Origin: Lytechinus pictus
Taxonomy: Eukaryota
DNA length: 64,000 bases
Direction of reading: 5' to 3'
Assembly (NCBI RefSeq): GCF_037042905.1
Contig: NC_087245.1
Coordinates: 35,404,001-35,468,000, forward strand
The position numbers and the translations under genes were made by a program. Shown piece by piece: positions 5,821 through 63,322 of this stretch. Within the stretch, counting starts at the first letter, position 1. Every line of letters starts with the position of its first letter. The notes beneath the pieces are model-generated. The model had not been told where the DNA came from. It did not search any database and saw nothing but the letters and a program-made list of their open reading frames with translations.

Positions 5821-5829
5821 TTAAGACTG

Positions 5830-9780: not shown

Positions 9781-9821
9781 AGCGTGTACGTATGTGTGTG
9801 TGTCCTAATTCTAGTCTGGAG

Positions 9822-13630: not shown

Positions 13631-13714
13631 AATGATCCTCTGAAGGATGAAGATAGGATATTTACCAATCTCTATGGCAGACATGACTGGAAGCTGAAAG
13701 GAGCAATGTCAAGG
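13631..13714 (+). CDS. NDUFV1: NDUFV1 coding exon 3 ([26 protein letters not shown])
   Basis: Conserved NDUFV1 N-terminal motif [19 protein letters not shown] boundaries. Confidence 0.95.
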
Positions 13715-14712: not shown

Positions 14713-14861
14713 GGAGACTGGTACAAGACAAAGGAGATTCTGCTGAAAGGACATGAATGGATATTAAAAGAGATAAGAGACTCTGGTCTAAGAGGAAGAG
14801 GTGGTGCAGGCTTCCCAACCGGTATGAAGTGGGGTTTCATGAACAAGCCATCGGATGGAAG
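14713..14861 (+). CDS. NDUFV1: NDUFV1 coding exon 4 ([13 protein letters not shown]...[17 protein letters not shown])
   Basis: NuoF/NDUFV1 glycine-rich nucleotide-binding loop [14 protein letters not shown] boundaries. Confidence 0.97.
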
Positions 14862-15410
14862 GTAATTATAACATTGACAATCAAATAAGTGGGTAATTTG
14901 CTTGTGTTCAATCTTTTGGGACAGAAGAGTAATAAAACACATAATCTTGCCTGAAATGTCTGCTCTTACTTGGGCGAATATTGACTTACGGAAGTTTGAC
15001 TTTAGGCAAGCTTAATACCTGTACTAGGCCACATAAGGTAAAGCTTAGTTCTTGATTGTAATGACTGATTTTGATGATAGATTATATTGATCATTATGTA
15101 AATCAATTGTACATGTCAGCTGTACAATCAATTATTAAGTTGTATGCTGCTGCCCCAAGATCTTCTGTGTTATTTTGTATGGTATATTGAATTAATGTAA
15201 AAAGAAGAGATGGGGAGCATTTCATCAACCTGTATTGTTTGACAATTAGTAAGATCTGACATTTACTATGGTTAATGTCAGGTACAACAAGACTATCTGA
15301 AATGTAGATGGGTATATATCAGGGGTTTCTTAGTCTGTAGATACAGACCCTTGTTTTGGTTTTTTTTTTTGCATAGTGCATAATGCAGAGTATGACGCAG
15401 TTCCCTCTAA

Positions 15411-15578
<168 letters not shown>

Positions 15579-15582
15579 TAAG

Positions 15583-15745
15583 AATTATTATTATTATTAT
15601 TATTATTGTTGTTGGTAGAGCCATGGGAGCTAGAGCAGGTAAGAATTATTATTATTATTATTATTATTGTTGTTGTTGTTATTATCATCATCATCATTAT
15701 TATTATTATTATTATCATCATCATTGTTATTATTAATATTATTAT
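15583..15745. repeat. (TTA/TTG/TCA)n microsatellite in NDUFV1 intron 5
   Basis: Direct observation. Confidence 0.9.
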
Positions 15746-16533
15746 TTGTTTGGCGTCACCTGTGCCTGGGAGGCGAAAAGCGAACTGAATCTCTATGACC
15801 CGCAGGTCTCTCCTCCCGATATAACTGATTTAGGGGAGTTCAGTTCCCTATATCCAGAGCTCTTGTAATTTGTTATCATCTCAGTAAAATCCCCACACTC
15901 TAAGATAATTCCTGTGTGAAAGTTCTACTATTGAACAGTACCTACATGTAACCTGTGGTTATTTTCTTTGGGATAGTGCAAGTAATTTGCAGTCATGTGC
16001 ACTGGCTAAGTACTTGGAATTCTCTGATTGTGTAGAATTACAGATGAGGAAATACCTGGTATATTATGTTATTGGGTTGGTATGAAAGCAACCATTGAGG
16101 GAGAGGGGAGCTAACTGGAAGTTGGAATTGGGAAATGGGATAGGGAAATAATCAAATGGACAAGGGGCATTTGCACTTTTTTTATTGTGCAAAAAGCCTT
16201 CGAAAATTGGCGATGGATGAATTGACTTAAGCTCTTTTGAAGAAAATGATGTATAATATCCTGACAAAACAGTGAGACCAGTTTTAATTTAGTATTCTCC
16301 AAGTAGTCAGAAGATACTGAGCTATCTTGAATATCGTCCCTGGAAATTTCGTTTTAAATAAGAAACATGAAATATTATCAAACATCCCTGACATGGCTAA
16401 TGATAAGGATTTGAGACTTTTGATTCTCATACCTTTGTGTAGCGGGTAAGTATCAAGTAGACTTTAATTTTATGGATCATTGCATTTTGTAATTTTGTTC
16501 AAAGGATTTCTTGATTTTTATTTTCTATTGTAG

Positions 16534-16598
16534 CTTACATCTACATCCGTGGAGAGTTCTACAATGAGGCCTCTAACATGCAGCTTGCTATTAAAGAG
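16534..16598 (+). CDS. NDUFV1: NDUFV1 coding exon 6 (AYIYIRGEFYNEASNMQLAIKE)
   Basis: Conserved YIYIRGEF motif; AG/GT boundaries. Confidence 0.96.
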
Positions 16599-17935
16599 GT
16601 ACTACTTGTCTTCCTAAACAAGTCTTTGATTCCTTTCTCTATTTCACTATCTCTTAATCTAAGTTGAAAACTAATACATTTTCTATCCTTCTTGATATAT
16701 CTCTGTTTTTTATCTCTTCCTCCCCATAAGTTACCCTAAGAAAGATTCAATAGATTATTTCCATCAGTTAATTTCTATTTTAAGTTGTATTTAGTACTTT
16801 AGTAGTTTATGTTCTTAGTTATCAGTATTGATTGAATTAAGCACATTGATCTTTGTATTTGAGCTGTATATATTATTCTAAATATTTCTATACTACATTT
16901 TATTTCTAATTAAGTATAGTAATGATGTTTTGTTCTTCATATTATTTGTTTTTATTCTAAATATCTTGCACTATTCATACTTCCATCCTTTTATTTTCTT
17001 AGCTCTTTGAAACATATGTATAAAGTGCTTTAAAAATTTTGTGTGTATTATAAATTATTGTACATTTGATATATTTGCCATAAAAAATTACTGCTGTTCA
17101 ATATTTTATTTCACTGTTAGTTGATTATTGTCAACAAAATGTCGCAGATAACAATACATGTATATTGCAGAGTCTGAAATTGCATATTCATTGTTAGCTG
17201 TAATTCTGTGAGACGAGGGAAGGGATAAATAAACTTACGGCTTTCATTGGTGCATGTCTATGTAAAGAGGTCATTTGGGTACCAACCTATGAAATAATGG
17301 GTTGGTTTAAAAGTAATACAGAACAGCATTTTGGTCAATAAATAGTGATTGATTTTTCTTCATCGACAATATTTTGGTCATATCCTGTTAACGGGTATGT
17401 CAACATGATCATAAAACCATTATCGAATATTCATTATTTTTTTCAAAATCTCAAAATATTGCTTGTAATGTAAATATAGAAAGTCAAATATAATAAAATT
17501 GGTCCATCTATGCTTACCTTAGCATGGCATGGCTTCAATTAAAGTAGACTTTATATGGATTTTTTATATATGTACAGGTATATCATATTTTACAAAATTT
17601 ATACAAAAAATGATGTAACCCAATAGTTTATAACTTGTAATTTGAATAACCAGGAGATATGACAATGCCTGATAATTCCTCCACTCTGTCTTTCACACTC
17701 ATATGGAGATAAGCACACCAGCTATGATCCTCAATGTTAATTGTTTTATAAGATGGTTTGAATAATTACTGGGATAAGTTAAGGCATTGTTGTATTGGTA
17801 GGTCTCTTTATTTGGGAAACAGGTGTTATTAAATTTATGCATAGAAAACAGCCTTCTAGTAGAAATACCTGTATTAAGCACCTGACATGTCACTAAAATA
17901 ATGCTATTTTTGGTGTTTTTTTGTTCTGTTTTCAG

Positions 17936-18040
17936 GCTTATGAAGCAGGTTTTCTTGGAAAGAATGCATGTGGATCTGGGTATGACTTTGATGTCTACAT
18001 GCATAGGGGAGCTGGAGCTTATATCTGTGGAGAAGAAACC
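17936..18040 (+). CDS. NDUFV1: NDUFV1 coding exon 7 ([35 protein letters not shown])
   Basis: FMN-site motif [15 protein letters not shown] boundaries. Confidence 0.97.
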
Positions 18041-18076
18041 GTAAGTAGTGTTAACATCGTCAATTCATGGTACTTG

Positions 18077-18240
18077 GGTTTAATGCCAATCAGAACCGCA
18101 ATGCGGTATGGGATCGAAAAGGGGGGCAATCAAGCTAGCTCCGCGCATGCGCACTACGAACAGTCCGCAGTGCGCAGAGCTAGCTAACGGCCCCCTTTTC
18201 GATCCCATGATGCATTGTGGTTCTGATTAGGGATAAACCT
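18077..18240. mobile_element. Short palindromic MITE in NDUFV1 intron 7
   Basis: AATCAGAACCGCAATGC..ATGGGATCGAAAAGGGGG..AGCTAGCTC pairs with GAGCTAGCT..CCCCCTTTTCGATCCCAT..GCATTGTGGTTCTGATT. Confidence 0.75.
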
Positions 18241-18380
18241 TATTCTATACTAAATTTATGAATGAAGAGAAAATGTTTGAATGGATTGTTCATTTAAGTC
18301 AGAAGACGAGGGCAAGTTCATGAAACAAATTGTGACTTTCACTGACAATTTTTATAAGCTACTGAAATCCTTGCATCTGA

Positions 18381-18668
<288 letters not shown>

Positions 18669-18900
18669 TAGTGAAGAGAGTGCAGAGAAAGAGAGGTGGA
18701 GAGAGATGGCTACTGTATCATGCATGCTTCCTCAAATCTCAATGGACTTTAACATTGAAAAAGAAGCAGTATTTATAAAGTGGCTGCGCTATACAAATTC
18801 ATCTTATCATTATGTTGTTATCATTTTGTATTGTTGATGACATTTTATTTCACTTTGAATGTGATGGCTTTTATTGTAAGAGGTGGTTTTGTAAAAAATA

Positions 18901-19160
18901 AGATTATGCATACTTTTTACACAAGTTGTTTGTCGTGATTTTGTCTTTTTTTTATATTCAAAATACTTTCAACAAAATTATGATAGGCTGGTATGCTTAC
19001 CTATCTTAAGATTATGCATACTATGTACACAAGTTGTTTATAGTGATTTTGTCTATTAAAAAATTCAAAATAATTTCAACAAAATTACGCTATAGGCTGG
19101 TATGCTTACCTATTTTTAAATTATGCATACATTTTAAAGAAGTTATTTGTAGTGATTTTG
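18901..19160. repeat. About 109-bp tandem repeat, about 2.4 copies, NDUFV1 intron 8
   Basis: ATTATGCATAC occurs three times and ATAGGCTGGTATGCTTACCTAT twice at about 109-bp spacing. Confidence 0.85.
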
Positions 19161-19218
19161 AATAAGTTTATGCCAATCCATGTATGAGGCTTGTATTGCT
19201 TTATGTTACAACTTTCAG

Positions 19219-19451
19219 ATCATCTGTAGGAGGGGAGCTCCGTGGTTCGCCGGCTTTGGACGTGAACGCAACCAGGGCACCAAACTCTTCAACATCTCAG
19301 GCAATGTGAACACTCCCTGTACAGTGGAGGAATCCATGTCTATTCCTCTGAAGGTCTTGATCGAGAAGCATGCTGGTGGTGTAGAAGGTGGATGGGATAA
19401 CCTGTTGGCTGTCATACCCGGTGGCTCATCTACCCCTCTAATCCCTAAAGA
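19219..19451 (+). CDS. NDUFV1: NDUFV1 coding exon 9 ([13 protein letters not shown]...[13 protein letters not shown])
   Basis: Conserved GTKLFNISG and PGGSS motifs; AG/GT boundaries. Confidence 0.97.
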
Positions 19452-19745
19452 GTAAGCATTGAAATCTTAAGACGAGAAGTGGTAGATGATGCAGGGTAAT
19501 TGTCATAAAAGCGATTCAAAATAATCTCAAATTGTTTAGATCCAATGTCAATATCCATCATTGATATTCTACTCATATACCCCGTAACTTGAAAATTCTA
19601 CTTTTCTTTTTCTGTAGTAAATCTCATCTTTGTTTGGTTCTTCATGTTATTGTTATATCATGTACATTTTCCATGCTTGAGCCACTGATATGTCTAAGTT
19701 TCTTTATCGTTCAATAAAGTGATTAAAAATAATTATTCTTTTCAG

Positions 19746-19899
19746 TGTGTGTGAAGATGTGTTGATGGATTTTGATGCCCTGGTTGCCGCTCAGACTGGT
19801 CTTGGTACTGCTGCCGTCATTGTGATGAACAAACAGGCCGATGTTGTCCGATCTATTGCAAGGCTCATGGAGTTTTACCAGCATGAGAGCTGTGGACAG
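19746..19899 (+). CDS. NDUFV1: NDUFV1 coding exon 10 ([12 protein letters not shown]...HESCGQ)
   Basis: Start of the Fe-S cluster N3 motif HESCGQ|CTPCREG; AG/GT boundaries. Confidence 0.97.
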
Positions 19900-20779
19900 G
19901 TAAGGATCATGACCACAATGTGGTTTGATCGTTCATTTCAGACTTGGCTCGAGTTGTTACGTTTATTTGGAAAAACTTTCAATTGCTATTGATAATCAGG
20001 GGTGGTATTCTGGAACACTGTCATAACTTTTGAAATTTCTCTCCGAGATGTGACACCGCTATGATTGTCATAAATTGGTATTCTGAAAATTGTCTTTTCC
20101 CTGTCATATCTCTCTAAGTTCCCACCCATCTTTTCTGAAGCAAACCAATCAAAATCATCGTTGTTTCCCAGTGGGAGCACTTCTAGCCAATAGGAAGTCC
20201 CCGTGGCAAGTAGGGCGTATCCCCAATACAGTTGCTGGCATCACGCAACTGTGTGTATATTGATGCGCCTAATTACAAAGAGAGACAGGGAGCTGTGAAG
20301 GAATTTAAAAGAGAAGTAGAAAAATAAGGAAAACAGAGGAAAAAGGAGGAATTAATATGTAGGGCCTAATTAATTATAGCATGAAGAAATATTTTTGAAA
20401 ATTGTCATGGATGATGAGTTAAACTAATACCGCAATCTAATCTAAATATAATTATATGCTTGATATTTTGTCGGCAGGGTATCGAGATATTTGGTACTAA
20501 AAGACATGACAAAATTTATGACTGCTATCCCCGTCATAAATTATGTCATATCTTTTACTTGTATTAAATGATTAAGTGCATTTAAAGTCGCATATTTTTG
20601 GTGCGTGCTATAGACAAGAGACAAAACTTATGACAAGATTTTTTTTTTTTTTTTTTAATCAATGTTGAAATAATGCGGGTATTTACAAGACCTTAGTTAA
20701 TCAGAAATACATAAATAGATATTTACTTTAGTCAATTACATTCATAGGCTGGATGTTCAATTTTGATCTTACTTCACAG

Positions 20780-20834
20780 TGCACACCATGCAGAGAAGGA
20801 ACTGGCTGGATGACCAAGATTACTAACAGATTTG
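20780..20834 (+). CDS. NDUFV1: NDUFV1 coding exon 11 (CTPCREGTGWMTKITNRF)
   Basis: Completes the CxxCxxC 4Fe-4S motif; AG/GT boundaries. Confidence 0.96.
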
Positions 20835-21034
20835 GTAAGTTTTATTTAAAATTTTCACTGTGATCATATGGTCAGTGGACATGTTCGGGAGGGGGGCATC
20901 AAAATTGACAATTTTTTCATGATTGACAGGCTTATCTGGTACGACTCGTTAATGCTGTATTTTCTTTTTATCACTATGATTTCAGAAGAAAGAAATACCA
21001 CATGGTCAACATGAAATTGTCATGGGGATTGTTA

Positions 21035-21415
21035 TCATGATGATGGTGGTGGTGATGATGAATGTTGTAGTGATGATGATGGTGAAGTTGGATGATATGA
21101 TGATGGTTATGATAGTGAATTTGATATGATGATGATGATGGTGAAGTTGATATGATGGTGGTGGTGGTGATGGTGACGATGATGGTGAAGTTGATATGAT
21201 GCTGATGGTGGTGGTGATGATGAATAATTGTAGTGATGATGATGGTGAAGTTGGATGATATGATGATGGTTATGATGTACAACATTGCTTATTGTGGAGG
21301 TGTGGTTACAGTATTGGTGGTGATGTTGATGCCACTTTTGTTTGTGATCATAATTGCGAAAAATTGTGATGTTGATGATGATTCTGGTGATGATGAGGTT
21401 GAAGATAATGATACT
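21035..21415. repeat. GAT/GGT-rich compound microsatellite
   Basis: Direct observation; includes a repeated GATGATGGTGAAGTTG unit. Confidence 0.9.
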
Positions 21416-21687
21416 GAAAAATTATCATGGCTTATTTGGTAACCAACATTTGAAAATATCCCACCCCCACAAACAAACAGATTCATTGGGGTTATGCAAA
21501 TCTGTTCAAACTAAGGTGCAATTCAATAATAAAGTGAATAACACTGCAAAATTGGTCATAAAATTTTGCTTCAGTGAGGTGATTGAGAAGTGATTATTCA
21601 ACTCATTGAATGTAGATTTATGCAGATGAAAATGTTGTTATTGTGGACCCACCCATAATGATTTTTGTCTCTTGTGTACTTTTCCAG

Positions 21688-21797
21688 TGGAAGGCAATGC
21701 CAAGCCAGATGAGATTGATATGTTGTATGAGCTGAGTAAGCAGATTGAAGGTCATACTATCTGTGCACTCGGGGATGGTGCAGCATGGCCTGTACAG
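21688..21797 (+). CDS. NDUFV1: NDUFV1 coding exon 12 ([12 protein letters not shown]...[16 protein letters not shown])
   Basis: Fourth Fe-S cysteine in [13 protein letters not shown] boundaries. Confidence 0.97.
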
Positions 21798-22360
21798 GTA
21801 AAAAATATCATTTTTAAGATCAAGTTCACCCCAGCAAGTTTAATGAATACTGGTATAGAAAAATCAAGCAAGGATGCCACTGGAAGTTTATTAAATTTGG
21901 ATGTAAAAAGGAATTTCACTAAGTAGTTACATTCACAATCACATTACAGTTAGTATGCACATTCTGGTATCACACACAGTCATTTATCATATATTGCTGG
22001 GGGTATGAAATATATTTTCATTTTTGGTCCCACGTGCATAGCAGACTATAGGCGCCGCTTTTCCAACAGCGGCGGCTTCGTCAATGAAATCTTAACCAAG
22101 GTTCAATTTTTGAATTTTCATCATAACTTTGGAAGTATATGGACCTAGTTTCTGAAACCCAGATATAAGAGTAATCCAATATCACTGATCATCTTGCAAG
22201 AGTTTCAGGTCACATGACCAATGTTAAAGGTCATTTAGGTTCAATGAAATTTGACCATGTTCTGGGTATCAGCATTGAAATCTTTAATAATCAAGGTATG
22301 AAGGTCCTGTACTTATTTTAACATCCATTTATCCACCATTTATCTTTTTTTTTTACACAG

Positions 22361-22447
22361 GGTCTTATTCGTCACTTCCGCCCAGAGCTAGAAGCTAGGA
22401 TGAAACGGTTCCACGAGGCCAAGCAGAAAGCGTCGGCCACTGCATAA
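22361..22447 (+). CDS. NDUFV1: NDUFV1 coding exon 13, terminal (GLIRHFRPELEARMKRFHEAKQKASATA*)
   Basis: Conserved GLIRHFRPE; TAA stop at 22445-22447; exon lengths sum to 1416 nt. Confidence 0.96.
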   Translation, partial: GLIRHFRPELEARMKRFHEAKQKASATA

Positions 22448-22604
22448 AGCCTACCAATGTACACAAAGTGGTATCAACCTATCTATTAAAATCAGATATG
22501 ATATTGAATCTATGGAATTAAAATAGGTCAAGTCTTTGTATAGCAATGCCTTAAATTATCAGGGTATGTTTCACGAAGAATAGAAGATCCAAGGCTGACT
22601 ACAG

Positions 22605-40607: not shown

Positions 40608-40850
40608 ATGGATCAACGCGATGGTTTTAGTCAGAAACCATCGAAAATTCGCCCGATTACCATCGACGATCCGCTTCCAGCAAATTGGGAAATGTTGACT
40701 GATCCGGGAACAGGTTGGCCGTTCTTCGTCAACCATGCAGCTCGTGCTACAACTTGGGAGGATCCAAGAGATGAAAAGGGTGTGAATACAACTTCAACTA
40801 CAACAAGTTATGATAATGGAAATCATTCTCAAGCTGGATCTGATGTGCAG
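40608..40850 (+). CDS. BAG3: BAG3-like co-chaperone, coding exon 1 (WW domain)
   Basis: WW domain [34 protein letters not shown] with the GWPFFV.H pattern typical of BAG3; CAG|GTAGGC donor, phase 0. Confidence 0.9.
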
Positions 40851-42713
40851 GTAGGCAAACAAGGCCAAGTCAAATCTAAGAGTTAGATTTTATTATCAAT
40901 TGGTGAAAAGCTGAAAAGTTGACCATGTCCATGGCCACTGTTGACTCATAAAATCTTAATTCTTATTCTTATTAATCTTATGATTTAATTGTGCCAAAAT
41001 TTTTAGATAAACTATCAACAGTTTCTTGGAAAAACCTCTGCCGTCATTTTCATATTGATTAATGGTGCCCCATTTAAAAATTCTGTGCACCCATTCACTT
41101 TAGAGTTTAGGCCCTACAGTACACATGATCATGATTAGGGGATTCTGATGAAGAGGCTGCATTTTGAGGCTGTCACGTGAAATGCCAAAAAACATTATTT
41201 TACCACCACCATTTTTAGTCAGATTTTTTATTGCATATCTTTGTACTAATTCATGTGTACTTAAGTCTATGGTTGTCGCGTATCTTCTTTTGCTAGAAAT
41301 ATGCACAGACACAGAGCCTTGCGCAGACAGGGACAGACCAGACCAGGGGACCTTTCCATTTCTATTCTAGATCTGGTGATCAATTCTAACGATGATGATT
41401 CCTGTCTAACTTAAGCCAGGTCTAGATCTATGTATCTATGCTGTGGCATATTGTCCCTATTTGGGTAACTTGTCTTGAGAGAAGGTTTTTCCTCAAACTG
41501 AAGTTAATACCCAGAATAAGATGTTGTGTTTCTGGACAAGAAAGGCAGTAACTTGCAATCAATATTTCATTTATCAATTGAAAGTAATATCAGACAGTAT
41601 TACAGAGCACAAACATTCACAATTATTTTTGCTATTACATGACTTTTGAGAGAATACAGAGCAAAAGCTGATGTTTTTATCTGCTGAAGTGTCTGGACAT
41701 CCAAACCCCACCCCACCCATCCTACATCATACATGTACCGTAATCATCATGATCATGGACAATTTGACTGCAATCGTGGGCCAAATTGCTGGTCGCTTAC
41801 CTTTGCTGATTTAAAGTGACAAATTCATTGTCTTTTTAGGATGAAAACATTTTAACAAATATTTGGAAACAAAACTCCTTCAATTTTAAGGATAAATGTA
41901 CAATATTAAAGGGGGCCACATGTCTGCACACCTACATGTAACTTTAATTTATTTTTTATTTCACAAATTTTTTCAGTTGACAATGTTCCTTATATTCTTA
42001 TAAGTGCCAAAGATCTCACAAAAATGAGAAAAATTACGAGAATATAACTGAGAGCAAGTTTCCAATGAACTTTTATTAAAGTTGGATGACCCTAAGGCCT
42101 AGCCTGCATCATTGTCTAGTTCTAATAATAAAATATATATGAAACTAAGCATTTCTGTAAAACCTGGATTTGGCTTTATAATGGATTAACATTATGCTGT
42201 TGCTGTCCTAGGGAGAAATCCTGTAGACTGGTCTATAATATGAAATATATTTTCACACACTGTACATGATGTAGACAAAGAGGCTTTGCATGTACCAATC
42301 TCCCTTTGCAATTCATGTAGCAAGTAATTTTGCTGAAAATGATTTAACCATAATGATGTCAGAGAGTTGACCACAATTGAATATTGGATATTTTGGAATG
42401 GAAGTCTCACACAAATAAGACCATGTTCTCATCTACATGTACTTTCTTGAACTTGTTTCCCTTGAAATCAAGCTGTGTACATGTACCTCTACGTAACAAC
42501 AAATGTCTATTATGTGTTTAAGCTGATCATTTTTGTTTGTGTACACATTTACTTATATACATGTAGTTCCAAAATTGCATGGACATACTCATGGCATGGT
42601 AATAATTTTGAGTTCTGTTTTTATTTTATAATTAAAGTTTTATTTAATGATATCTTTGTCATATTTTTCTGATGGGTGACAATTTGTTTTGTTTTAATTT
42701 GTGGATCTTAAAC

Positions 42714-43231
42714 TTTTTGTCTTGCCTGCATCGCAGAGCGAGACTACTAGTCACAGAACCAAAGTCAAAGGTCATTTAGGGTCAATTAATAGGCCATGTT
42801 TGGGGAACCACCATCGAATTCGTAACCGAGGTTAAGTCAATTGCCATCATAATTGCATGAAAGTTTATGGATCTAGTTCATTGAACATCCTGTCTGAGTT
42901 TCAGGTCACGTGACCAAGGCCAATGTTATTTAAGGTCAATGAACTTTGCCCATATTATTTGTTGAATTGCCTTCATAACTTTTAAAATTTATGGATCTAG
43001 TTCATGGAACGTGGGCAGACATGTAAGGGTAATCAAGTATCACTGAGTCTTACATGTACAGGTCTCATGATCAAGGTCAAAGGTCATTTAGAACATAGTA
43101 TTTTTCTTATCATATGAATGGTGTTTTTTGTGAATGATTACTTACATACATTCATTTTTTTTTAAAGTTAATTACTGCTGCTATATTGAATGGCCTAATT
43201 CAGGTGAGACTGCCAAAGGCGTTCTACTTGT
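42714..43231 (+). mobile_element. HINE-like element, same family as 3641-4057, inside the BAG3 intron
   Basis: 5' GTCTTGCCTGCATC is a near inverted match to the family 3' GCAGGTGAGAC; repeated GGTCAAAGGTCATTTAG units. Confidence 0.6.
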
Positions 43232-46200
43232 CATATTATCTTATTAGTCTGCAATGATGCAATGTTATCATTTTTTATTTTACCACCTTGTTTTTATACA
43301 TGCTCAAATGTTTTAATTAAAAGATGAATTTTTGCTACTTTAAATGAAGGTCGCTTGCTTGATGTTTACGAACACCTTTGCAACATTTTTTTACTGCCTC
43401 ATATCTCATAATTTGTATACAAAATAGTTGCAGAGCTTTGTTGCTATGATTGTCATGCCCTGTTCCAAACTAAGTGGGTTTGTGTTCTCAAACACTTTGA
43501 TCAAACCCCACTTCTCTTGTACATATACATGTACATGTATGCGTACATCAAGGGCGTAGGCCTGGGGGCGGGGGGGGGGGGAGGTGCATTGGGTGCACGT
43601 GCAGTTGTGCACCCTCCTGCTGAGGCAGAGGAGTTCCTACATGTACACTGAAAAGCAAAACAAAATTTGTACCCCTACTTCTGCTTTCGACAGCTGATTT
43701 TCCAAACTTTAGTTCCACCTCCCCAAGATATGTGTACATGTACACCAAGTTCCACCTTCCGATGTTCAAACCAGCCTACTGTATACGCCCTTGTACCCAC
43801 AAATTTGTGCATGGATAATAGGCCCTATACATGTACATGTACCTGTATGTGTAGGCCAACATAAAGAGCAAAATGTCCAGATACACAATTAAAAATTTGT
43901 GATAGATAAGATGCAGAGTTACATGTAATTAGCAACATTTTCAATTCAATTCAATTCGGTTTATTAGATATAAAACAGAATACAATGCTGTAGTCCGAAG
44001 ACTAATTGTGCAATGTTTACATTGATTATTACTTTAATACATTTGAAGATTGTATATACACTTAAAAAATTATTCACAATTCACATATAAATGAGAAACA
44101 GTTGGTTGATTGAGTCATGCATACATTTGTAAGTGAGATTTAGATTTTATGTTTGGTATTAAAGTGGGTGACCTATTTGTGTGTACATGTACACTACAAC
44201 TACAATACAAGATATGTATCACACTGGAGGTGTCACAATTCATACAAAGCAAACACTGATTTCTGGTTCTGTCCCATGCAGGGAGGTGAAAAATATGTGA
44301 GTACAGGGGCAATTAAATGGAAACAATTTTGACCTTTATACAGCGCTCCACTCTACTTCATCGTTACATGTATTGTCCTGTGCCAGTGATCTGAATAACG
44401 AATGAAATTTGCAGGCTGGGGTCCAACTGTAGGCCTGTACACGTTTTATAGTGAGTACAGGTTTTATAGGCCTACGTACAAAATTATTCTTCATTCATAC
44501 TTGTACATGATATACAGTTGTACATCACCACCAATCTCTGGGCTATTATAATGAAGACATACAGATACTGTACAATACATGTAGGCCTACAGCTACATAC
44601 AGGGGCCTGTTGCAGTAAACATAATTTGCAAATGCTTGATAAATCAAGGGCAAGTCTCTGATATTGGTTGGAAATCAAGTTGTATTTTGTATAGATTGTT
44701 CGATTGTGCACTCTTTCTTCAATGGTTCCCAGTATGACATGTACATGTAGTAGCCTACAGTGTGCATCTGCATGAGAACATTTCTCTATTTCCATATTTT
44801 TCCTTGAAATTGATGAATAGAATAGGATAGGAAATAATTATGTGATACATATTGAGTAGATATCTGTATGATGATTATTTTAGGCTTTCACATATTGTAA
44901 ATTCTCGTATTCTACCCACATACATTACATGGGTCTACAAACATCTTGCTTCATGTTCAAGAGAGACCAAATGAATACAACAATCACAATAACAAGTCAA
45001 TTTTAAAGCAAAGCATCAACATCATTCAACAGAAACCCCATTTCATACAACTTACATGTAGGTGCATTCCAACAGGAGAGGAAAAAATAAATGAATATAA
45101 TAATTAATACTGACAATTACATTGAAATGTGATGTAGAATATTTAGTTATGAGTTACATCTAAGTTGTGATTTAATAATGCGCATCAGTTCAAATCAGAA
45201 GAATTGATGCTACATGTATCTGACCTTATTATTATTATTTTTTTTTTACTTTGTAAATTTTAATATTTGAATTTTTGTAGATTTGATAATAAGCTCATGG
45301 ATATACCTACATGTATTACTCACAAGACAGCAATTTTAATCAAATTATCTTAATTAAAAAAATTAAGCCCTGAATTGTATGACACAACAAATTTTGGCAA
45401 ATGTCGATAGAAAATACCGGTAGTTAAAGGGTGCAGCTTATGTCAAATGAATAGCCCCCTCACTGATAATGACGTCCTGAGTTGTAGGACGAAGTGTGAT
45501 TATTGTCTAATAATATGTAAATGTGCTGATAGTGATAGGGTCAGCGTGACCCTGGGCCACTCACATGAATATGCATTATTATGCAATGAATATTTTTTCA
45601 TGTTTACTGTACATTTTACATGTAGATACGGGTCATGTTCTGTATACCCCCATTCTACAACACTGTATTTAGATTGCATAACATTGTTCCAACAAAGGAA
45701 ACTTCTCAAGTAATTTTTTTTTCCGTTGGTGGATTGGGTATAATTGGTACATTTTATTGTACTTTTAAAGCACATTTTTTTAGACAATTGTTCTAATGAA
45801 TAGTTTGGTATTTGTTTAAAAAAATTGGATGTCATTTGACATATAACACGTACATGTATTGTACTACTAGAATATGTACCATGTACATTACAGTGTATTA
45901 CATTACAATACAGTACACGTTAGTGTACGTGTACATGCTGTTCAATCCAAGCCTCCCTGGTATGTTACATATTCTCCTTCATCAAGTAGGCCAACATCTA
46001 CTGGTAGAATACCTTGCCAAGCTGAACAAGGGATTGATACCATCACCATTGCTCATCTTCAGGTCATGCCGTAGACTATTCACAGTTTAGTCCCTCGCAT
46101 ATCCTGTGAAGCAATGACCCTGACATTTGTCTCATACCACTATGCCCCTCCCTCTACACGTAGTCCCACCCCTTTCTCCTTGCGTTGCTAAATTGATTCC

Positions 46201-46440
46201 CCTTCCTGGCTTCCTGTTTTGGGGACAAATTTAGCCAGGTGGAAGCACCGTGAGCCTGTCACATGAGAAAAACACTAAGATCAAATGCTCCCCAGGGACT
46301 GAATCCTTGTTTTGAAGTCAGAAGGGAAAGCCCGTAGTCTCAGAGAATTGACTTTCAAATATGGATGTGGACCTACATTTTATGTATGAATGATGTATCT
46401 TTTAAGTTTTAATTATCTGTTTCTTCATAAATAAATGAAG

Positions 46441-46630
46441 GCGCGACAGCTCAGTCGGTAGAGCGGGGGACTCGTATTCCGGTGACCCGGGTTCGATTCC
46501 CACTTGGTGCGCTACTGCCCTTTGGTAAGGCATTAATCCTCAGTACCAGGTCCTTCGGAGGGGACCTTAAGCCGTCGGTCCTCTGGTTGCTTGCTTACAA
46601 GCATTCATGCTTTCTTAGCAATCAGGTAAA
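46441..46630 (+). mobile_element. tRNA-derived SINE (second family) in the BAG3 intron
   Basis: AGCTCAGTCGGTAGAGC A box, GGTTCGATTCC B box, followed by SINE body GCCCTTTGGTAAGGCATTAATCC and an A-rich end; the cloverleaf stems are imperfect. Confidence 0.75.
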
Positions 46631-47756
46631 AAAAAAATCACCACCACCACCACCCTATTCATTGATGTGGATGAATAGAGGAAAATAAAACGAGCGTGAT
46701 GCTGAAAATTTTATCAAAATATGATGTAAAATTATAAGAAAATTATGACATTTCAAAATGATGTTTATTTTAACAGGAATACATGTAACACAGGTGATAT
46801 GTAGGCCCCCTATATGAAAGAGTAGATGCCAGTAGGGTAACCAGACGTCTTGGATTTCATGGGGCAGTCCCGTATGTCAGCAATTTGTCCCGTGTCCCAT
46901 ATGACCCTGCCCAGTCCACCGTTATGTCCCATATTTCACGATTTGGAACACAATATAATATTCAACATTACATGTACATTTTATCTCATATGCATAACAG
47001 GATAAAGATGAAATATGATATGACTGTCTAAAGATTAAGTAAAAATAGTTCACAATATTTTATTTTTATATTTAAAACTAAACTAATAGGCCAACTTTTT
47101 TTTTCACTGGTGTCGATCCGTGACATCATACTATTCGAGTGGGGGGATGATGCATTAGATCATCCCCCCTTGAACAATAGATTCACAACATCTACACCCA
47201 TGGCCTAGCCCTTTACTGTACTTTACGATTTTTAGAATATTTCTTTTCATGCACTGGCAGTTATTTCAATACAAAATTATGAGAACAAGGCAGTATCAAA
47301 GACAAGCGATATAATAGAGGCTGTTCACATGGAAAATTTTGAACTACAGATTTGTACACAAACAAACCACTAAAGGTCTCTGCACCGGGGGGGGGGGGGG
47401 GGGGGGGGAGGCTTCCCTTTTATTTATGAGCAAAGAATCTCTGATCTAACCATTTGATGTGGAGCTCTAAGTTGTGAACTAAAAGTAATTCTAAACCATC
47501 AAAATACTTAATAAAGTATATTATATTGTATTTAGATTTTAGATCTACAGGACTATACACATACAAGCCATAGAAGGGAGAGGGTGGGATAGGCTTCATT
47601 TTTTTTACCCCCTCCTTTTTTCTGTGAGCAAAGAAATCACTGATCATTTTGGTATCCATCGATAAAATTTGTTACTAAAATTCTTTTAAACTGTAAAGTA
47701 AATACATTGACTGAAGAATACATCCTGACCTTAATTTGCTCATGTAGTACTATAGT

Positions 47757-48032
47757 GGGGGCACTGTTGTCTAGTGGTTACGACTATTGTCTTTCAAACT
47801 AAGGGACGTGGGTTCGATTCCCAACCATGGCGTGTTTTCCTTCAGTAAGAAATTCACCCACATGGTGCTGCATTCAACCCAGGTGAGGTGAATGGATACC
47901 CTGTCGGAAGAAATTCCTCAAATACTTGAGCGGCTCGGCTAAGTACTGCCAGGATAATAATATTATACCAAATGTAAAGTGCGATAGAGTATATTTTTAG
48001 TAGAGCTGCACTGTATAAATGGTCCAGTATTA
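47757..48032 (+). mobile_element. tRNA-derived SINE, same family as 24236-24505
   Basis: GTCTAGTGG A box, GGTTCGATTCC B box, CAACCCAGGTGAGGTGAATGG body. Confidence 0.8.
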
Positions 48033-49252
48033 TAGCTTGTGATATTGAAACACAAGAAGAGGATGAACTTCAAAGAAATATGGTTCTGAAATGCACTTTG
48101 ACCTAGGAGTTTTTAAGGTTTGAAATCAAACTTAAGCATGTGTAACCTGTAGGCCTACAGTATTGTTGAACAATTATGTAGCTTACAGTGTACCTGTATG
48201 TCATACATGTAAAATATTTTTATTCTTTTATGCACTCAAACTCAGTTGTGCCAAATTCAGATTTAATCTTACAGCTACCCCTAGTCTTGACAGGAAAAAA
48301 GAGCCTCAATTTGTGCATTCCAACCCACGTAAAGTGTGTGTACATGTACATGTAGCTTTGATGAGGATAGTGCCAGAGTGATTCAGTACTTTGGTGTCTA
48401 AGGAAGTCTGTTTGCGTAGACTAGTGGTGTCTTTGCCAAACCTGTTTTGGCAGGAAGCACCACAGATTACAGCACAACCTTGTGCTTATTAAGACTTGGC
48501 GTTCTTAAGTTCAAGCCAGTTTTAAGTTTGCAGCACTCGGACATCATATATATGTGTTTTGATCCACGCTGCTAGTTCACAAAGAGTTCTGTTCATGTTC
48601 TCTTGGTGTATTTAACTTGACTACATTCATTGCTTGGACCGACACAGAGTCTATCAAGTTTGTTGGAACACAGACTATTCAGTTTTTTTATTGTGATTCA
48701 TACAGAAGTCTGGATACAGTTTGTTTTGAATGAGGATCATAGGCACAAATACTCAGCAGTTTTTGGTGTGTATTACATGTATCTGTCAAACTTGCTGAAA
48801 AGATATTTGTTTTCATTATGTTCGAGTGAGACATAGGCATGCTTGTCAGGAAAACGTTGTTGACTTCTCTCTTTTTTTTTACTTACTGTCTTTGAGAGCA
48901 TGACGGTAAGATTTGCCGAGTAGAAAATGATTGATCTGTTGAACAGACTGGGAAATGGGAATTATTTAGTTGTACAATAGAATATTGAATATACAGTGTA
49001 TTCCTTCACTTTAGGAGTTCAGCTTCTCAAGGTTGACCCTCCAAAACAATAATGTATTCTCTCAATTGTTTAGGTCTTTAAACTGGTGTAGACCTACATG
49101 CACATTATGTAATTGAGAAAATAGTTTATTTTCCTCATTTGTCTTCTTCAAGATTTTGACATTTTTATTTTATCACTAATTGAAAAAGATCAGATTCTTG
49201 TTGAAATTCTATTGATTTTAAGTATTATTCAAATTTTCTTTTTATCTTTCAG

Positions 49253-50512
49253 CCTTTGAATGACAGTTCCTTTGGCAATATGTATGTCCAGTCAGCCCCC
49301 CACCATGGTCATCCAACTCCTACCAGCCAACAGCAGTACTACTGGCAGAATAGACCCGTTCATGTAGAGCATGGAGGAAGTGCAAGCCCCAAGAACCACC
49401 ATCGGGAGTTCCCTATCGTAGACGGCAAGTTCGTCAACCAGAGCATGGTCAGTCCACAGAGCAGCAGGAGAATGGGTTCCATGATCCAGAGGCCAGTCAC
49501 GATGCATAGTCCACGCCAGAGCCGAAGAGGAGGAGCCCCCCTGCAGCCATCGGGGAGTGTCCTGCAACGGGGTGGAGCTGTCAGGTCCAATGCAAGACCG
49601 ATGTCACCCCAGCAGCCACACCACCAACACCCAAGCAACGGAAGACCCAATGGAAGTCAAGCATATACTGTTCCAATCCATGTGCAGCAGCAGCAGCAGC
49701 ATGATGGATCCTCTTCCGGAAGCAGCAGTCCAGAGCCGAGGAGCGGGATGACCAGTTCCATGAGGAATTTTAATGGTCACCAGACCCCGATCTCTATACC
49801 CATTCAGGTGCTACGTGGTGGGGGCAACCAACAGAATAGTGATTTTCCTCATGTGCCGCCTCCTGTTCCTCCTTACCCTCATGAGAGTCTGATTAGTCAA
49901 AGGGCATCTCAGGCTAATCACCGTGCCCATTCACAAGCTGGTACCAAACCGCAAAGGACCCCGACCGTTGCATCGCCTCAGCTACCGAATGTCAGTGTCT
50001 CTGGAGATCTTCCACAGTTCACCGAAGAAGGGTCATCATCATCATCATCCAGTCAAGAGCGTCACTCCCAGACTCCATCAAGGGGAGGGGGGCAGACGAG
50101 AACAGCGTTCCATGGTGCCCCTCGTAAAGCACATTCACCGCCCAGGACTCAACCGGCAACGCAGCACAAGACGACAAAGACGGCAACGTCAAAGACCATT
50201 GATATCGACCCAAAGCCAGCTACATCCAGTGAAAAAGAAGAGGCTTCACTGCAGCATCCAAAGGAACTAAGGGAAATATTTGACATCATGACCATCATTG
50301 CTCAGCTGGGAAATGAAGTGGATACCTTTCAAGGATCAAAGACTGACCAATCGTATCTGAAACTTGAAGAACTCCTCACTCGCCAAGTACTCCGTCTTGA
50401 CAATATTGATGCACATGGAGATAGCACTGTACGGAATGAACGCAAGAAGGCAGTGCATAAAGCCCAGGGATATCTTGACTTCTTAGAAAAGAAATGCAGT
50501 GGCAATAGCTAG
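49253..50512 (+). CDS. BAG3: BAG3-like co-chaperone, coding exon 2 (IPV-like motifs, Pro-rich region, C-terminal BAG domain)
   Basis: Polypyrimidine-CAG acceptor, phase 0; TVPIHV and ISIPIQV motifs; BAG domain EVDTFQGSKTDQSYLKLEELLTRQVLRLDNIDAHGDSTVRNERKKAV; TAG stop. Additional small exons in the intron cannot be excluded. Confidence 0.92.
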   Translation, partial: PLNDSSFGNMYVQSAPHHGHPTPTSQQQYYWQNRPVHVEHGGSASPKNHHREFPIVDGKFVNQSMVSPQSSRRMGSMIQRPVTMHSPRQSRRGGAPLQPSGSVLQRGGAVRSNARPMSPQQPHHQHPSNGRPNGSQAYTVPIHVQQQQQHDGSSSGSSSPEPRSGMTSSMRNFNGHQTPISIPIQVLRGGGNQQNSDFPHVPPPVPPYPHESLISQRASQANHRAHSQAGTKPQRTPTVASPQLPNVSVSGDLPQFTEEGSSSSSSSQERHSQTPSRGGGQTRTAFHGAPRKAHSPPRTQPATQHKTTKTATSKTIDIDPKPATSSEKEEASLQHPKELREIFDIMTIIAQLGNEVDTFQGSKTDQSYLKLEELLTRQVLRLDNIDAHGDSTVRNERKKAVHKAQGYLDFLEKKCSGNS

Positions 50513-51122
50513 CCTAGCATTTCTTCATCTCTTTTATCAATTTGAATGTAATATATTCTCACATTGTAAATGTGTAAATTTGTTAGTGGCAGTAGTATTT
50601 GATTCTTCGAATTTGAAATTTCGTTCTCAGTTTATTCAGCATTTAGACTGTTTTTGAGTGGATCGGAACTAAGAATAACAATTTGATATTAATACTGAGG
50701 TCATCTCTGTTGTAAATTATTGTTTACATTTGGAAAGAAACCTACAAGTGTGCATGCACAGTCAATTGATGCAATGTGTGCTATGATAGATTGCATACAG
50801 ACTTACTTTAATTACATGTTTATTTTCAACCGCTTTTGGCTTTGCTCCATTTTATTAATCACAGAAACTGCACAAGGGTTTTGGTTTGTACGTTGTAGTT
50901 GCTGTTTTGATTTACATGTGAGTACATAGAGGCTAGACTAGTGAATATGATACAGGTTTGCCAAATCATGGATTGCCTTGAATGTGTTTTGATTAGATGT
51001 AATGGAAACATATCCACGTCAAAGTTATGACATTTTTTAAAGCCTAAATATTGATACCTTAAAACTGCCAAGGAGATTTTATGCTGTCTTTAGAGAGATA
51101 GGCTAATGTATTCATTACAACA

Positions 51123-51127
<5 letters not shown>

Positions 51128-51161
<34 letters not shown>

Positions 51162-51170
51162 TATATATAT
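51128..51170. repeat. (TA)n microsatellite downstream of the BAG3 stop
   Basis: Direct observation. Confidence 0.9.
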
Positions 51171-52818
51171 GATTCTTTTTAATTACTTGACAATCAGTAG
51201 ATGCCACTGAACTCAAGAGCAATATATTAATCTTGAAAGAATAAGAAACACAAATCCCTACCTATTCTAAATTTTCAAAGTTTTTATATTTTGCATCGCT
51301 AACTTTAAACTGCTTGGATTACATGCTGTCATTTGGGTACTTGACTTTGAAGTTCGCACAACTTTTATTTAGGCAGAAATGATGTATTCAACCTGTGTGC
51401 AGAGATCCTTTATATTATTAATCATAGTATTAAAGAAATGTATTCATTATTTATTTATTCTTTCTCTTCATGTACAATTTACAAAGTTATAAAAGAGAGG
51501 TTGTGGTGGCTTTGGGTAATGGATCTACATTTTCATTGAAACATAATAAAAATTGAAGGACTCCATTCAACTTATGACAAAGAAAATAAAGTGGTTCAGG
51601 TAAACAAAAATATGTATTTTTTTTAAAATGGTTCAGGGCTTTTTGAATATATTTTTATGTGCCAAAGTTGACCTTAAATGTCCTACAATTGCAGAGCTCG
51701 AAGTAATCCAATCCAATGCTATGGTTATAGATGGCCTTTTAATTGGCCTCAATGATCTCACATTGGCTTTGGAGATTTGTACTGCCCCTTTTTATTTGAT
51801 TTGAGCTGTAACATGGAAATATGCCCTAAACAAAGGTGGCCTTAATTGCTTAAACGATATTTTAAATCAGAATATAAAGGCTTGTAATTAGAAGCATGAT
51901 AGACCAAAACATGCAAAGCATGTATCTTCCGTCTTTCAAATTGAATTTCATCTTTAGAAGTCGGTGAGATTTCTGTGCTGCAAGGGTTATGCCTGTATTC
52001 AATTTAAACTTCAAAATGATACAGGCCAGTTTGTGTTCATGAACTTCTGTTAAATTTGGATCTTTAATTTGTAGATAATCAAAGTTTTAAGAAGGAATTT
52101 TGTTCTAAGGCTCAATCTGTAGTACAATATGTAGAGGAAGTAATTTATAAGAATGGTTAGCAAAGGAGCTAACAAGGTTATCATGTGTTTGTAAAATATC
52201 CGGATACCTTTAATGGTCAAGGTGTCACCCATGTGACCCTAATCATGTTTTAAGAGATTATACATCCCCTTATTATGGTAGACATGCTAATTGCGTAATT
52301 CCCAATACCCTGTGATAAACAAATTTCAGAGCTTGTACATCATGTCAGTTGTGTCGTAATTCACATAAAATAACACAACAGACATTAGTCTTAGGTGCAA
52401 ACCTTGACTTTTATAAAATGATGTATCCATCATGAATCTACATTGTATTTCAATTGATGAGTTCACCGGGCCACCGAATGTCTGTACATGTGTGTTTGTG
52501 CAAGATGTTATCTCCATGAATTTTCATTGAATGTGTTGTTTTTTGCTTTGTCGTGGTCAGAGAGAATTAAAAAAAACACACCTTTCATGCAGTTAGGCGC
52601 ATATCAGGTACTCATTTCAACAATCTAAAGAAATTTGTCATGGAAAGAGCTGATTAATTTTTTTTTAATAATAAAGAAATATCTGTCAGAATAAGTTATT
52701 AGCATGTCTCCTATTCCAACCTGATATTTTTTTAAAACATGAACTGCTAATTAGTTCCACATTGTGCACACATTGAAGGTCAGATGAGGACTATGTGAGT
52801 GATCAAGCCTGAAATTAA

Positions 52819-53424
52819 AGGTCAAGTCCACCCCAACAAAAAGTTGATTTGAATAAAAAGAGAACAATCCAACGAGCATACCACTGAAAATTTCATCAAA
52901 ATCGGATGTAAAATAAGAAAGTTATGACATTTTAAAGTTTCACTCATAATTTCACAAAACAGTTATATGCACATCCTGTTCGGTATGCAAATGAGGAGAC
53001 TGATGACATCATCCACTCACTATTTCTTTTGTATTTTATTTTATGAAATATGAAATCTTCTAAGTTTCTCCTCATTGTCAAGTGAAACAATGATTAATTC
53101 CTCCCTGAACATGTGGAACTAACATTATTTAATACTATATTGTTCAGTGAAGTTGGTCCTTATTGTCAAATCTGTAAAAAAATGAAATATTGTATAATTC
53201 AAACAATAAAAGACAAAAGAAATAGTGAGTGAGGGACATCAACGACTGTCTCATTTGCATATAACTGAATTGTACATATCACTGTTATGTGAAAAATAAG
53301 CGAGACTTTAAAATGTCATAACTTTCTTATTTTTCATCCGATTTTGATAACATTTTCAGCGTTTTGCTAGTTAGATTTTTCTCTATTTATTCAAATCAAC
53401 AGTTTTCTGGGGTGGACTTGACCT
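52819..53424. mobile_element. Complete Kolobok-like MITE with long TIRs and TTAA TSD
   Basis: TTAA|AGGTCAAGTCCACCCCA ... TGGGGTGGACTTGACCT|TTAA; arms complementary for about 200 bp. Confidence 0.88.
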
Positions 53425-56400
53425 TTAAATGAAATAAGGTTCAACTACAGTAGTTGTAGATTTGAAATGTAAAAGGAGAACTGTAAAAGAGGAGTGCAAT
53501 GTAAAGCTATATCTGTCCATTTGATGGGTCTTTGACAGAATGATAATTGAATTGAGAATACAATCTAATTAAGTTAATTTGTTATTGACAATGTATACAA
53601 CATGGTTGTTTGGCAAGTATTGAAATGAAGGAGTAAAAGACTGTATTTTTATTAGTTGTAAACATGTTTATGTTTGTGTCTTTCTCTTTTGTTTTGTTTC
53701 CTGTGTTTGTTCTTATTCGTATAACTGAATGTACCTCATGACATAATAGGCTATTTCAAATCAAGTTAATGACGGGCATTTAGAATTTGCAAGAAACTCA
53801 ATTTCAAAATTTGACCCAAAATGGGTGTATGCCGGTTTGTAAAATCTCTTCTGCATACTTCAATGGGATACATGTAAAAAGGAAGCAAGTGACAAAATGG
53901 GATTTCTTGTAAGAAATATGTAAATGAAATACTAGTTCTCAAACAAAATGTTTTTCACCATTTATGCTTTTCCTGCCTTATCTAATGTCTCTGAAGTATT
54001 TCAAGAAATTTTCAAATGCTATTGTTGTTTTTGGAACCCATGATGTAGCTGGCAATGAGTGTAGTACTATAAAAAGGTTTTCTTTTCAGTTTTTATTGCA
54101 TTTTCACTTTAGATTTATCCAACACTTGATAGAATTGTAACCCCCCCCAAAAAAAAAAAATGGCGAAGGATGCATCAGTAAATGCGTTACTTTTAGTTAT
54201 CAATGAAATGTTTCTTACTTCCTTCTGTATGAAAGTAATGACAGTCATTGATCTTCATGTACATATTTGACATTTAAAAGGCAAGCTAGGCCTCGGTAGC
54301 ATATACAGTCACACTCAGTGTACTGTATTGAGTATGTGGGTCATATGTGGGTGCCTTCACTGCCTAACCAAGGAAATTCTATTCATTATTCTGGGGCTAT
54401 TGTTGTGTGTCAAAACAAGTGATGCACAAAAGTCATTGTCAATCACCAATATTCATGGCTATTATTATCTTTGACTTTCTGCTGTCACATTGCACCCCCA
54501 AAAATAGTACAAAATTGCAGGCAAGCATTTGGTTATAAGAACTAAATTCAAATTTTCAAGTTTAAGTCTCTTCATGTATTCATTTTGAATTGAGATATAT
54601 ATGATATGAGTCTTTTTTAGAAAGTGAGTCATTTGTTTTAGAATCCCAGGGTTCTCCACACCAAATTAGGGATTTTTGTAATCCTACACAATCTGAAATG
54701 ATTGCATGTCAAACTTGGTCTGTTCACATTACCAGTTTATCATTACTTTGCTTTCCTTTTTATGCATAGTACAGGAAATGTGAACTGGTCCAAACTTGAA
54801 TAAGGGAAGATAAACATGCAGTCAGGTTTATTCACATGTCCAGTTTCTCAGACTTTGTTTTCCTGATTATTCATCGTATAGGCAGTGATAATGTGTCTAA
54901 CCATATTATTTAGTATTGGAAATCCACACCGCGTTTGGATTGTACACATAACGAGTTTCTCAGACTTTGTTTTCCTTATTTGGGGAGAGTAAAATGGTCC
55001 AAATACTCGATCATGTTTGCCTCTTCTAAGTTAAAATAGGGCTTGTATTCTATTCAATACTGAAATTTATGATAGACTTATTTAATGTGGAACTGACCAT
55101 GTTGCTAAAAAAATGTACCCCCTCTCCTAACTTAAATGTATTTTGATCTGTATGCAGTTGCTTTCAGACGAGTGCTACATACATGTACATGTATATTCTT
55201 ATAAACCCAGAGAGCTCTCTGGGTCAGTATATTCCCTTTTCCAAATTGTTTAAAAGCAGAGGGTCTAACAAAGCTTAATTTTACTGTAAACATCTGATCA
55301 TATATGTACATTACATGCATTCTTGCAGGTCATGTCACATAGAATAAGAAAAGACTTTCAAGCTTAAATGTGCAAAAGATGGGCTACCCAAATGTACATC
55401 CTCTCCTCTGGCACTTGTATCTATTTATTTCTATAGGGGAAAATTGTGCCAATTTGTATAAAAAGGTTTGTAAGAAGATGTATAAAAAAAACAAAAGAAA
55501 TATTATGTGTGTATAGTGGCACAACCAAAACTTGATTGTATAGTGTGAATATTTATTTTGTGGGATAGAGACTATATAATAAGTGTACTTCAAGTAAAAT
55601 TGATATTAAATGAAATGAAATCTATATATCTTTGTTTGAAAATATATTTGTCTTGTTCTATGATAAAGTTCTTAGGAGTATTTGATATCGGATTTAAAAA
55701 TTTGCATCCGTCTAAAGAATTTACCTGTAGATAACAAATATTAATCTACAAATAGCCTCCTTGTTATATGATGCTTCTCGAAAAAAAAATGGATTCAGTT
55801 TTTGGGCTTTAAATCTTTCAAAGGGTCTAAATTGAATCTGCAAAACAAATTTGTTGAATTTATGTATATTATATGGCGACTTGACATTTGAACTGGATGA
55901 AAACTTTAAAAAAAAATGTGAACAGTAGGCTTAGTGGCCTACATGTTACCCTTTTATAAAGATTTTAAAAAAATTGAGAAGAATGTGAGTCAGATTTTGG
56001 GTTTTTCCTGTTTCAGAGAAGAGCAGGGGTGGATCCAGCTTTTGCCAAGTGGGGGGGGGGGGGTGGTGGCAATATATTTCCCCCTACATTTCCCCCGATC
56101 GGCCGACTAAAAGCTGACTTTTGATGTTTTAGGTATTCCTAACTAAAGACTGAAGTTCTAAATAGCAATTATATCTTAGCTATGTATTTCATGTGCCCTA
56201 TAATTAAATAATGCGAGCACAAACTGCAAGCTCAGTTTTTTTCTCGAAAATTTCACATATTTTGTCCAGAAAATTAAACGTTCTCAGCAAATTTTGTGAT
56301 CATGAAGAACATGCTTATCTAACCAAATGCAAGTGCTTAGCATGAGGTGATTTTTTTTTTTTTTTAGATTTAGACCAAAAAAACTGGACACTATTCAACT

Positions 56401-63100: not shown

Positions 63101-63322
<222 letters not shown>

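Follow-up and report, generated by a model that had tools for sequence, protein, structure and literature searches.

Why does one short palindrome recur throughout a single intron, and by what process would its copies have arisen? The question is raised by a stretch of 64,000 nucleotides from the sea urchin Lytechinus pictus (contig NC_087245.1, positions 35,404,001 to 35,468,000; the window), in which the intron of the gene BAG3 is studded with the 8-letter palindrome TACATGTA. The copies are probably, for the most part, neutral excision scars of a TA-targeting transposon of the Tc1/mariner/pogo type, or of its MITEs (miniature transposable elements bearing inverted repeats), concentrated in gene bodies that look methylated.

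A sharply defined word in the BAG3 intron

The initial annotation had labelled the host gene BAG3, a label borne out by a WW domain (PF00397) and a BAG domain (PF02179) that are joined in frame across a GT-AG intron. RNA run X24 covers the two exon bins on one strand at depths of 14.5 and 8.3, and unique intron bins at approximately 0-1. The parts of the gene are as follows; o/e denotes the observed/expected ratio.

40608..40850, + strand: BAG3 first coding exon, WW domain (PF00397, E 3e-11), RNA depth 14.5, in-frame join
40851..49252, + strand: BAG3 intron, 8,402 bp, GT-AG, CpG o/e 0.36, holding 28 copies of TACATGTA
49253..50512, + strand: BAG3 last coding exon, BAG domain (PF02179, E 1e-15)
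41730..48781, no strand: field of 28 copies of TACATGTA, including three tandem pairs (43526/43532, 43828/43834, 48341/48347)

The window contains 45 exact copies, 28 of them within 41,700-48,800. A recount thus reproduced the 28 copies first reported for about 7.1 kb, and all 15 positions named at the time are exact; the 17 further copies, one of them inside an exon of NDUFV1 (15,479), had not been listed. The expected number in the same 7.1 kb is 0.24 at order 0, 0.37 at order 1 and 1.1 at order 2, the last from a Markov background trained with the motif left in. When the motif was collapsed before training, the order-2 expectation for the whole 8.4-kb intron was 0.6. The excess over chance therefore ranges from approximately 50-fold (order 2) to 115-fold (order 0), so that the enrichment claimed initially stands, whereas its figure of 100-fold is reached only with the crudest background and approximately 50-fold is the safer value.

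TACATGTA is sharply defined as a word. It is the commonest palindromic 8-mer of the window, each of its 24 one-mismatch neighbours occurs at most seven times against the 45 exact copies, and no extended motif was found in the flanks of the copies. The intron carries 3.3 copies per kb, corresponding after collapsing to 25 distinct sites among 685 TA dinucleotides. Three tandem pairs lie in the field, against 1.05 in simulations (P=0.08).

Gene spans, CpG depletion and a second sample

The excess extends beyond the BAG3 intron, and TACATGTA is linked to gene spans and to CpG depletion. The ATG-to-stop spans of BAG3 and NDUFV1 (23,742 bp) hold 35 non-coding copies, compared with none in three stretches that are clearly intergenic (18,203 bp; P=2e-9), gene and intergenic spans alike having been drawn after the counts were seen; NDUFV1 alone has seven copies against none in the same stretches (P=0.003). 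These counts extend the initial remark that an intergenic part of the window is free of copies. For the part then named, 56.5-64 kb, the count of zero is correct, but only 0.12-0.28 copies are expected there, which amounts to no enrichment rather than depletion. Nine further copies fall outside the two spans: three occur 3' of BAG3 in a CpG-poor stretch, four in a probable minus-strand gene or close to it, and two at the start of the window.

8650..22450, + strand: NDUFV1 gene span, with TACATGTA seven times in introns (10,768-17,155) and once in coding sequence (15,479)
50513..55700, no strand: CpG-poor stretch 3' of BAG3, o/e 0.30, with three copies of TACATGTA (53,869 and a tandem at 55,180/55,186)

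The CpG o/e is 0.36 in the BAG3 intron and 0.79 in intergenic DNA, and across the window the number of copies per kb falls as this ratio rises (rho -0.42, P=5e-4). The CpG-rich stretches that adjoin gene starts in the window contain no copy. Invertebrate CpG methylation concentrates in gene bodies (PMC8857917), and low CpG is therefore usable as a proxy for methylation; the term 'methylated-looking' refers to this ratio alone.

A second sample was fetched from metagenome contigs with a probe from a short interspersed nuclear element (SINE) that lacks the motif, giving at least 120 loci (460,112 bp), 80 of them with long flanks. This SINE, which we take to be coral-like, lies in contigs that look like animal host DNA unrelated to the lineage of the window. 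Locus L128 (55% GC, not SINE-like) was removed. Among the matches listed, TACATGTA is the top palindrome of the contig loci, with 94 copies, and over the 119 loci left its observed and expected numbers from the lowest to the highest CpG o/e class are 40/3.5, 37/2.8, 14/2.4 and 3/2.2. The excess is thus gone in CpG-rich contigs, and in the 45 loci of at least 3 kb the word falls with rising CpG o/e (rho -0.66). Control words of the same letters occur near expectation, and composition therefore does not explain the CpG dependence. A related palindrome, TACCGGTA, is enriched six-fold (15 copies against 2.5 expected, loci L030-L140). A probe from the urchin repeat gave no matches in viral contigs and none in the metagenome contigs. 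The SINE probe retrieved 21 loci from viral contigs, with two copies of TACATGTA in them; these look like chance phage matches and were discarded.

The bias towards gene bodies could also be a matter of DNA age, the scars being real but intergenic DNA turning over faster and losing them. The intergenic stretches are repeat-rich, and density is patchy, at 3.3 copies per kb in the BAG3 intron and 0.52 in other genic stretches, a six-fold gap between gene bodies that makes local history matter. However, several intergenic repeat copies are 60-80% alike, hence old, and are nevertheless without TACATGTA, and the contig SINE copies show no greater age in CpG-poor than in CpG-rich loci (median non-CpG divergence 6.6% versus 12.1%, 25 versus 18 copies), a comparison that mixes species and subfamilies and is a weak test. 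We regard age as an unlikely source of the bias.

Four observations concern the surroundings. CpG depletion runs approximately 5 kb beyond the BAG3 stop codon (50513-55700), which suggests a long 3' untranslated region or an unrecognised transcript. The end of one NDUFV1 exon, with its splice donor, is present twice, 55 bases apart, adjoining an ATT microsatellite (15572-15640). A minus-strand open frame of 202 codons (28574-29182), coiled-coil-like by eye, is probably an exon of a further gene that may reach to approximately 37050; the frame has no Pfam match and no longer relative of it was found. Long GAT/AAT trinucleotide tracts occupy 63039-63734 and 21011-21411. Rfam and ARAGORN gave no matches.

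Gains at TA and their probable origin

Homologous copies of dispersed repeats allow a gain at TA to be told from a substitution. An alignable copy was available for six of 131 motif events in the contig loci and the window: three are clean gains from TA to TACATGTA (L026:1717, L093:895 and L096:4314, all in contigs), two are ambiguous (L088 and L107), and one, at 43,051 in the window, is complex. In the same urchin repeat, the site at 43,018 reads as a clean gain with later decay, the sole clean test case in the window. By these alignments, then, four repeat copies carry six-base gains at TA.

42727..43231, no strand: high-copy tandem-unit repeat holding 43,018 and 43,051 (family D12), called HINE in the initial annotation, summed contig depth 2-4 x 10^5 against approximately 50-100 in unique bins
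43018..43025, no strand: GACATGTA, a putative scar, since decayed, at which TA in the high-copy repeat gained six bases; it faces a six-column gap in all four other window copies, with TA following in three of the four
43051..43058, no strand: TACATGTA at a complex junction in the same repeat as 43,018, approximately 13-17 family bases being replaced by 12, without TA in the consensus

Site 43,051 is the example that the initial annotation had itself named for a test of six-base insertion at TA, and the gain there is not clean: according to a loose-end consensus of runs X6-X8 and the alignment, the repeat family lacks TA at this point and bases were replaced. The three contig gains and 43,018 agree with insertion at TA, whereas 43,051, 36,513 and 46,780 are not clean. 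Three further loci (L070, L140 and L117) were rejected as clean scars, either because their repeat family lacks TA at that position or because a duplication would explain them equally well.

Insertions of 3-14 bp that could be polarised in repeats (n=71) include six of exactly six bases. Four of these have the form TA-C..G-TA, with CATG, CAAG and, twice, CTGG as the inserted core, and the other two are local duplications. L040:5736 and L046:825 are clean gains of CTGGTA at TA, and look like a CpG-decayed form of TACCGGTA.

Such gains would be expected from a simple cycle. An element with 5'-CA...TG-3' ends would insert at TA and duplicate it, as is known for the family; excision with a two-nucleotide stagger, known for Tc1, would leave CA and TG on the flanks; and filling in and joining of both overhangs, documented in the Caenorhabditis elegans germline, would give TA-CA-TG-TA, a net gain of six bases. 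Repeated over germline history, such cycles may pile up scars, sometimes on older ones. The scars collect in CpG-depleted gene bodies, a correlation seen in two data sets, most likely through insertion into, or end-joining of breaks in, transcribed methylated chromatin. Other element ends or a three-nucleotide stagger would likewise leave TAGGCCTA, TACCGGTA and TACWGTA. What drives the gene-body bias is inferred, as are the donor element, the route of repair and any expression in the germline.

Further TA-bounded words are in excess. In the BAG3 intron, TACWGTA occurs seven times against 2.4 expected (19 against 8 in the gene bodies of the window), TAGGCCTA three times against 0.1, and TAGGCC 12 times against 1.2. 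The last two cluster at 44467, 44582, 48150 and nearby; they are read as a scar of another kind, left by an element that would end in GG..CC and target TA. All three enriched six-base scar types are palindromic, in agreement with the prediction of a two-base fill-in from each end. The form of TACATGTA itself, a duplicated TA bounding the bases of element ends, is identical to the worm product. In the contigs, A at -3 is found in 43% of flanks against 31% (P=0.0015 after removal of scar-like flanks) and in 36% for control palindromes. Scar-like flanks make up 13 of 174 half-sites against a background of 1%. These flanks and the tandem pairs suggest scars stacked on scars, although slippage could do the same. 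Two further features lie in the intron.

44569..44600, no strand: stack of TA-separated short units (CAA, CATG, GGCC, CAG), read as possible scars laid on scars
43547..43794, no strand: MITE-like element, its right inverted repeat broken at TA (43,777) by a CTG scar plus an extra TA when the left and right ends are aligned

The MITE-like element also carries TACATGTA at 43,638 and 43,735, and the CTG scar would be of the mariner/Sleeping Beauty type.

Several results weigh against excision as the origin. Only one of the four testable window sites is clean; 43,051 is not, and 36,513 and 46,780 look like replacement or substitution when set against copies that are 65-75% identical. Scars with a gain of four bases (TACATA/TATGTA) are not enriched in the gene bodies of the window (47 against 43 expected), whereas they make up 78% of Tc1 footprints in worm soma (PMC13148408). 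The urchin flanks lack a significant Tc1-like target preference (A at -3 in the window, 38% versus 32%). A scan of the window yielded no TA-flanked element with clean CA..TG ends, and no donor was found: none of 27 intact open reading frames had a Pfam match, in a transposase search that covered only intact frames (these 27, plus seven others). Excision scars in rice are usually heterogeneous (PMC4423477), whereas TACATGTA is uniform, and the choice of spans after counting tells in the same direction. Lastly, three DNA runs and one RNA run were aligned on 40,560-49,450, and contigs of a sister species align across the intron with 5-11% substitutions, but they did not resolve individual sites, the 12 indel rows listed of 423 being filled by one high-copy repeat. 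Sister-species letters left out amount to 4.4% in pieces with motifs and 3.2% in pieces without, counted on 19 of the 24 listed pieces (three exon pieces, one duplicate and one exon-edge piece being set aside).

Point mutation would dispense with insertion altogether, through CpG decay combined with template-switch correction of near-palindromes in methylated DNA. The motif does track CpG depletion, two substitutions in the family sequence could account for 46,780, and at 36,513, within a short inverted repeat, the family copy shows a CpG. The other isomers that CpG decay would produce are nevertheless not enriched in the intron (observed/expected: TATGCATA 1/0.3, TACACATA 1/0.5, TATGTGTA 2/0.5), and simple CpG decay as the sole cause was rejected. 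Stepwise mutation should also fill the one-mismatch neighbours, which number 13 against 8.9 expected, and length gains of exactly six were observed. This makes point mutation improbable as the main source.

Under selection on a protein-binding motif, the alternative offered in the initial annotation, housekeeping genes would retain the word in their introns, either as a homeodomain-type site (Irx/TALE) or as a genomic signal like HIP1. TACATGTA is cited as the preferred Irx site (PMC3520976) and is bound by PsMyb37 (PMC11134190), exact copies far exceed decayed ones, and of the three copies in 42,273-42,632, at least one does not face a clean six-base gap in the sister species, which leaves out 13-14 letters where three such gaps would take 18. 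Set against this are the six-base gains inside dispersed repeats, the decay of 43,018 without repair and the lack of copies in CpG-rich stretches by gene starts; selection would, besides, leave the origin of the copies unexplained, although it may act on scars later. We therefore judge it less likely than excision, and very unlikely in itself.

A process independent of transposons, adding CATG at TA in transcribed methylated DNA by repair synthesis or through a domesticated transposase-like enzyme that cuts and re-joins, accounts for the six-base gains at TA as well as excision does. It also fits the lack of a donor, the lack of an excess of four-base gains, and the appearance of the same word with the same CpG dependence in two distant data sets. 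However, the inserted letters do not copy the flanks, so that a distant template would be required, which transposon ends would supply, and several scar types matching different transposon ends are enriched together. We know of no enzyme that adds CATG in this way, and give such a process little credence. Excision thus remains the best explanation, on the strength of the gains at TA, the other TA-bounded scars and the known Tc1 footprint, but the footprint proposal of the initial annotation is held back by 43,051, 36,513 and 46,780 and by the lack of a donor.

A broader possibility is put forward tentatively. Across distant marine invertebrates, TA-targeting transposons might be steered into methylated, transcribed germline chromatin, or breaks might be joined by two-sided fill-in only within it, leaving a uniform, countable six-base scar on up to approximately 4% of TA sites in some introns. 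If so, the density of scars would serve as a fossil record of germline chromatin, and of excisions that normally escape notice, for which a bare assembly would suffice.

Known footprints, novelty and neighbouring elements

The scar itself is already known as the Tc1 footprint (Eide and Anderson 1988, cited in PMC3520976), with the same word and the same net gain of six bases at TA. Tc1 excision leaves non-complementary two-nucleotide 3' overhangs, and C. elegans germline revertants with TA-CA-TG-TA number 24 of 103 in the wild type, 10 of 36 in lig-4 and 3 of 39 in polq-1 (PMC4490562, Supplementary Data 3), in an assay that detects in-frame products only. TA-CA-TG-TA is thus a common heritable Tc1 scar, and in worms ligase IV is not needed for it. 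In polq-1 worms, reversion overall is down more than 20-fold, and the worm germline also yields messy products in which flanking bases are deleted (PMC4490562). The systems differ in that the word is called rare in the worm (PMC3520976) and the germline spectrum is broad, with 26 products (PMC4490562), whereas a single six-base word prevails here, reaching 3.3 per kb, and no donor element was found.

Among other TA-targeting elements, ZB and Passer leave scars of 0-3 and 0-4 bp and have TA-centred target palindromes, resembling the A at -3 of the contig flanks (PMC9976928, PMC7913693). Passer, of the pogo family, favours genes, especially highly expressed ones (PMC9976928), a precedent for the gene-body bias here; its bias was described in human cells and is towards 5' ends and promoters, whereas in the window the CpG-rich stretches near gene starts lack the word. 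The six-base footprint of Minos (PMC10992017) likewise comes from a Tc1-family element. In Phytophthora, the same 8-mer, known as motif-1 or AM-20, is highly abundant genome-wide (PMC3520976, PMC11134190) and stands upstream of 12,070 genes (PMC3520976, which cites it as the preferred Irx site). There it is read as a promoter motif, and those authors argued against a footprint origin; here the copies sit in introns and show up as insertions.

Counting how often DNA transposons were excised is usually difficult, as the scars vary or are missing. One dominant scar at such density would allow past excisions to be counted, bursts to be dated against species splits and the germline repair route to be read. 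With the link to CpG-poor gene bodies present in two data sets that are unrelated, one could test whether transposons are attracted by the chromatin of gene bodies and whether breaks inside genes are repaired differently. Searches for k-mers in marine invertebrates, and perhaps oomycetes, may take such scars for regulatory motifs. The three-nucleotide scar of Sleeping Beauty and mariner elements is TA-C(A/T)G-TA, again a TA-bounded scar of terminal bases, and the gene bodies that hold TACATGTA carry a modest excess of TACWGTA; this scar differs in a gain of five bases instead of six and in a far weaker enrichment. The Minos scar is built from four bases of one end and is not TACATGTA. In a literature search with most subscription journals and bioRxiv supplements outside its reach, no description was found of dense TACATGTA fields in the genomes of sea urchins or other marine invertebrates, nor of the link to CpG-poor gene bodies.

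Other mobile elements lie nearby. MITEs with long inverted repeats, the arms reaching 133 bp, are present at 52815-53428, 5235-5824 and 4427-4761; the first is flanked by TTAA and so belongs to a different superfamily from the TA scars. Copies of a tRNA-like SINE are found at 46444-46630, 47773-47918 and 24339-24484, those at 47.8 kb and 24.4 kb sharing a core with the SINE of the metagenome contigs. In run X24, many RNA molecules end at 46,444.

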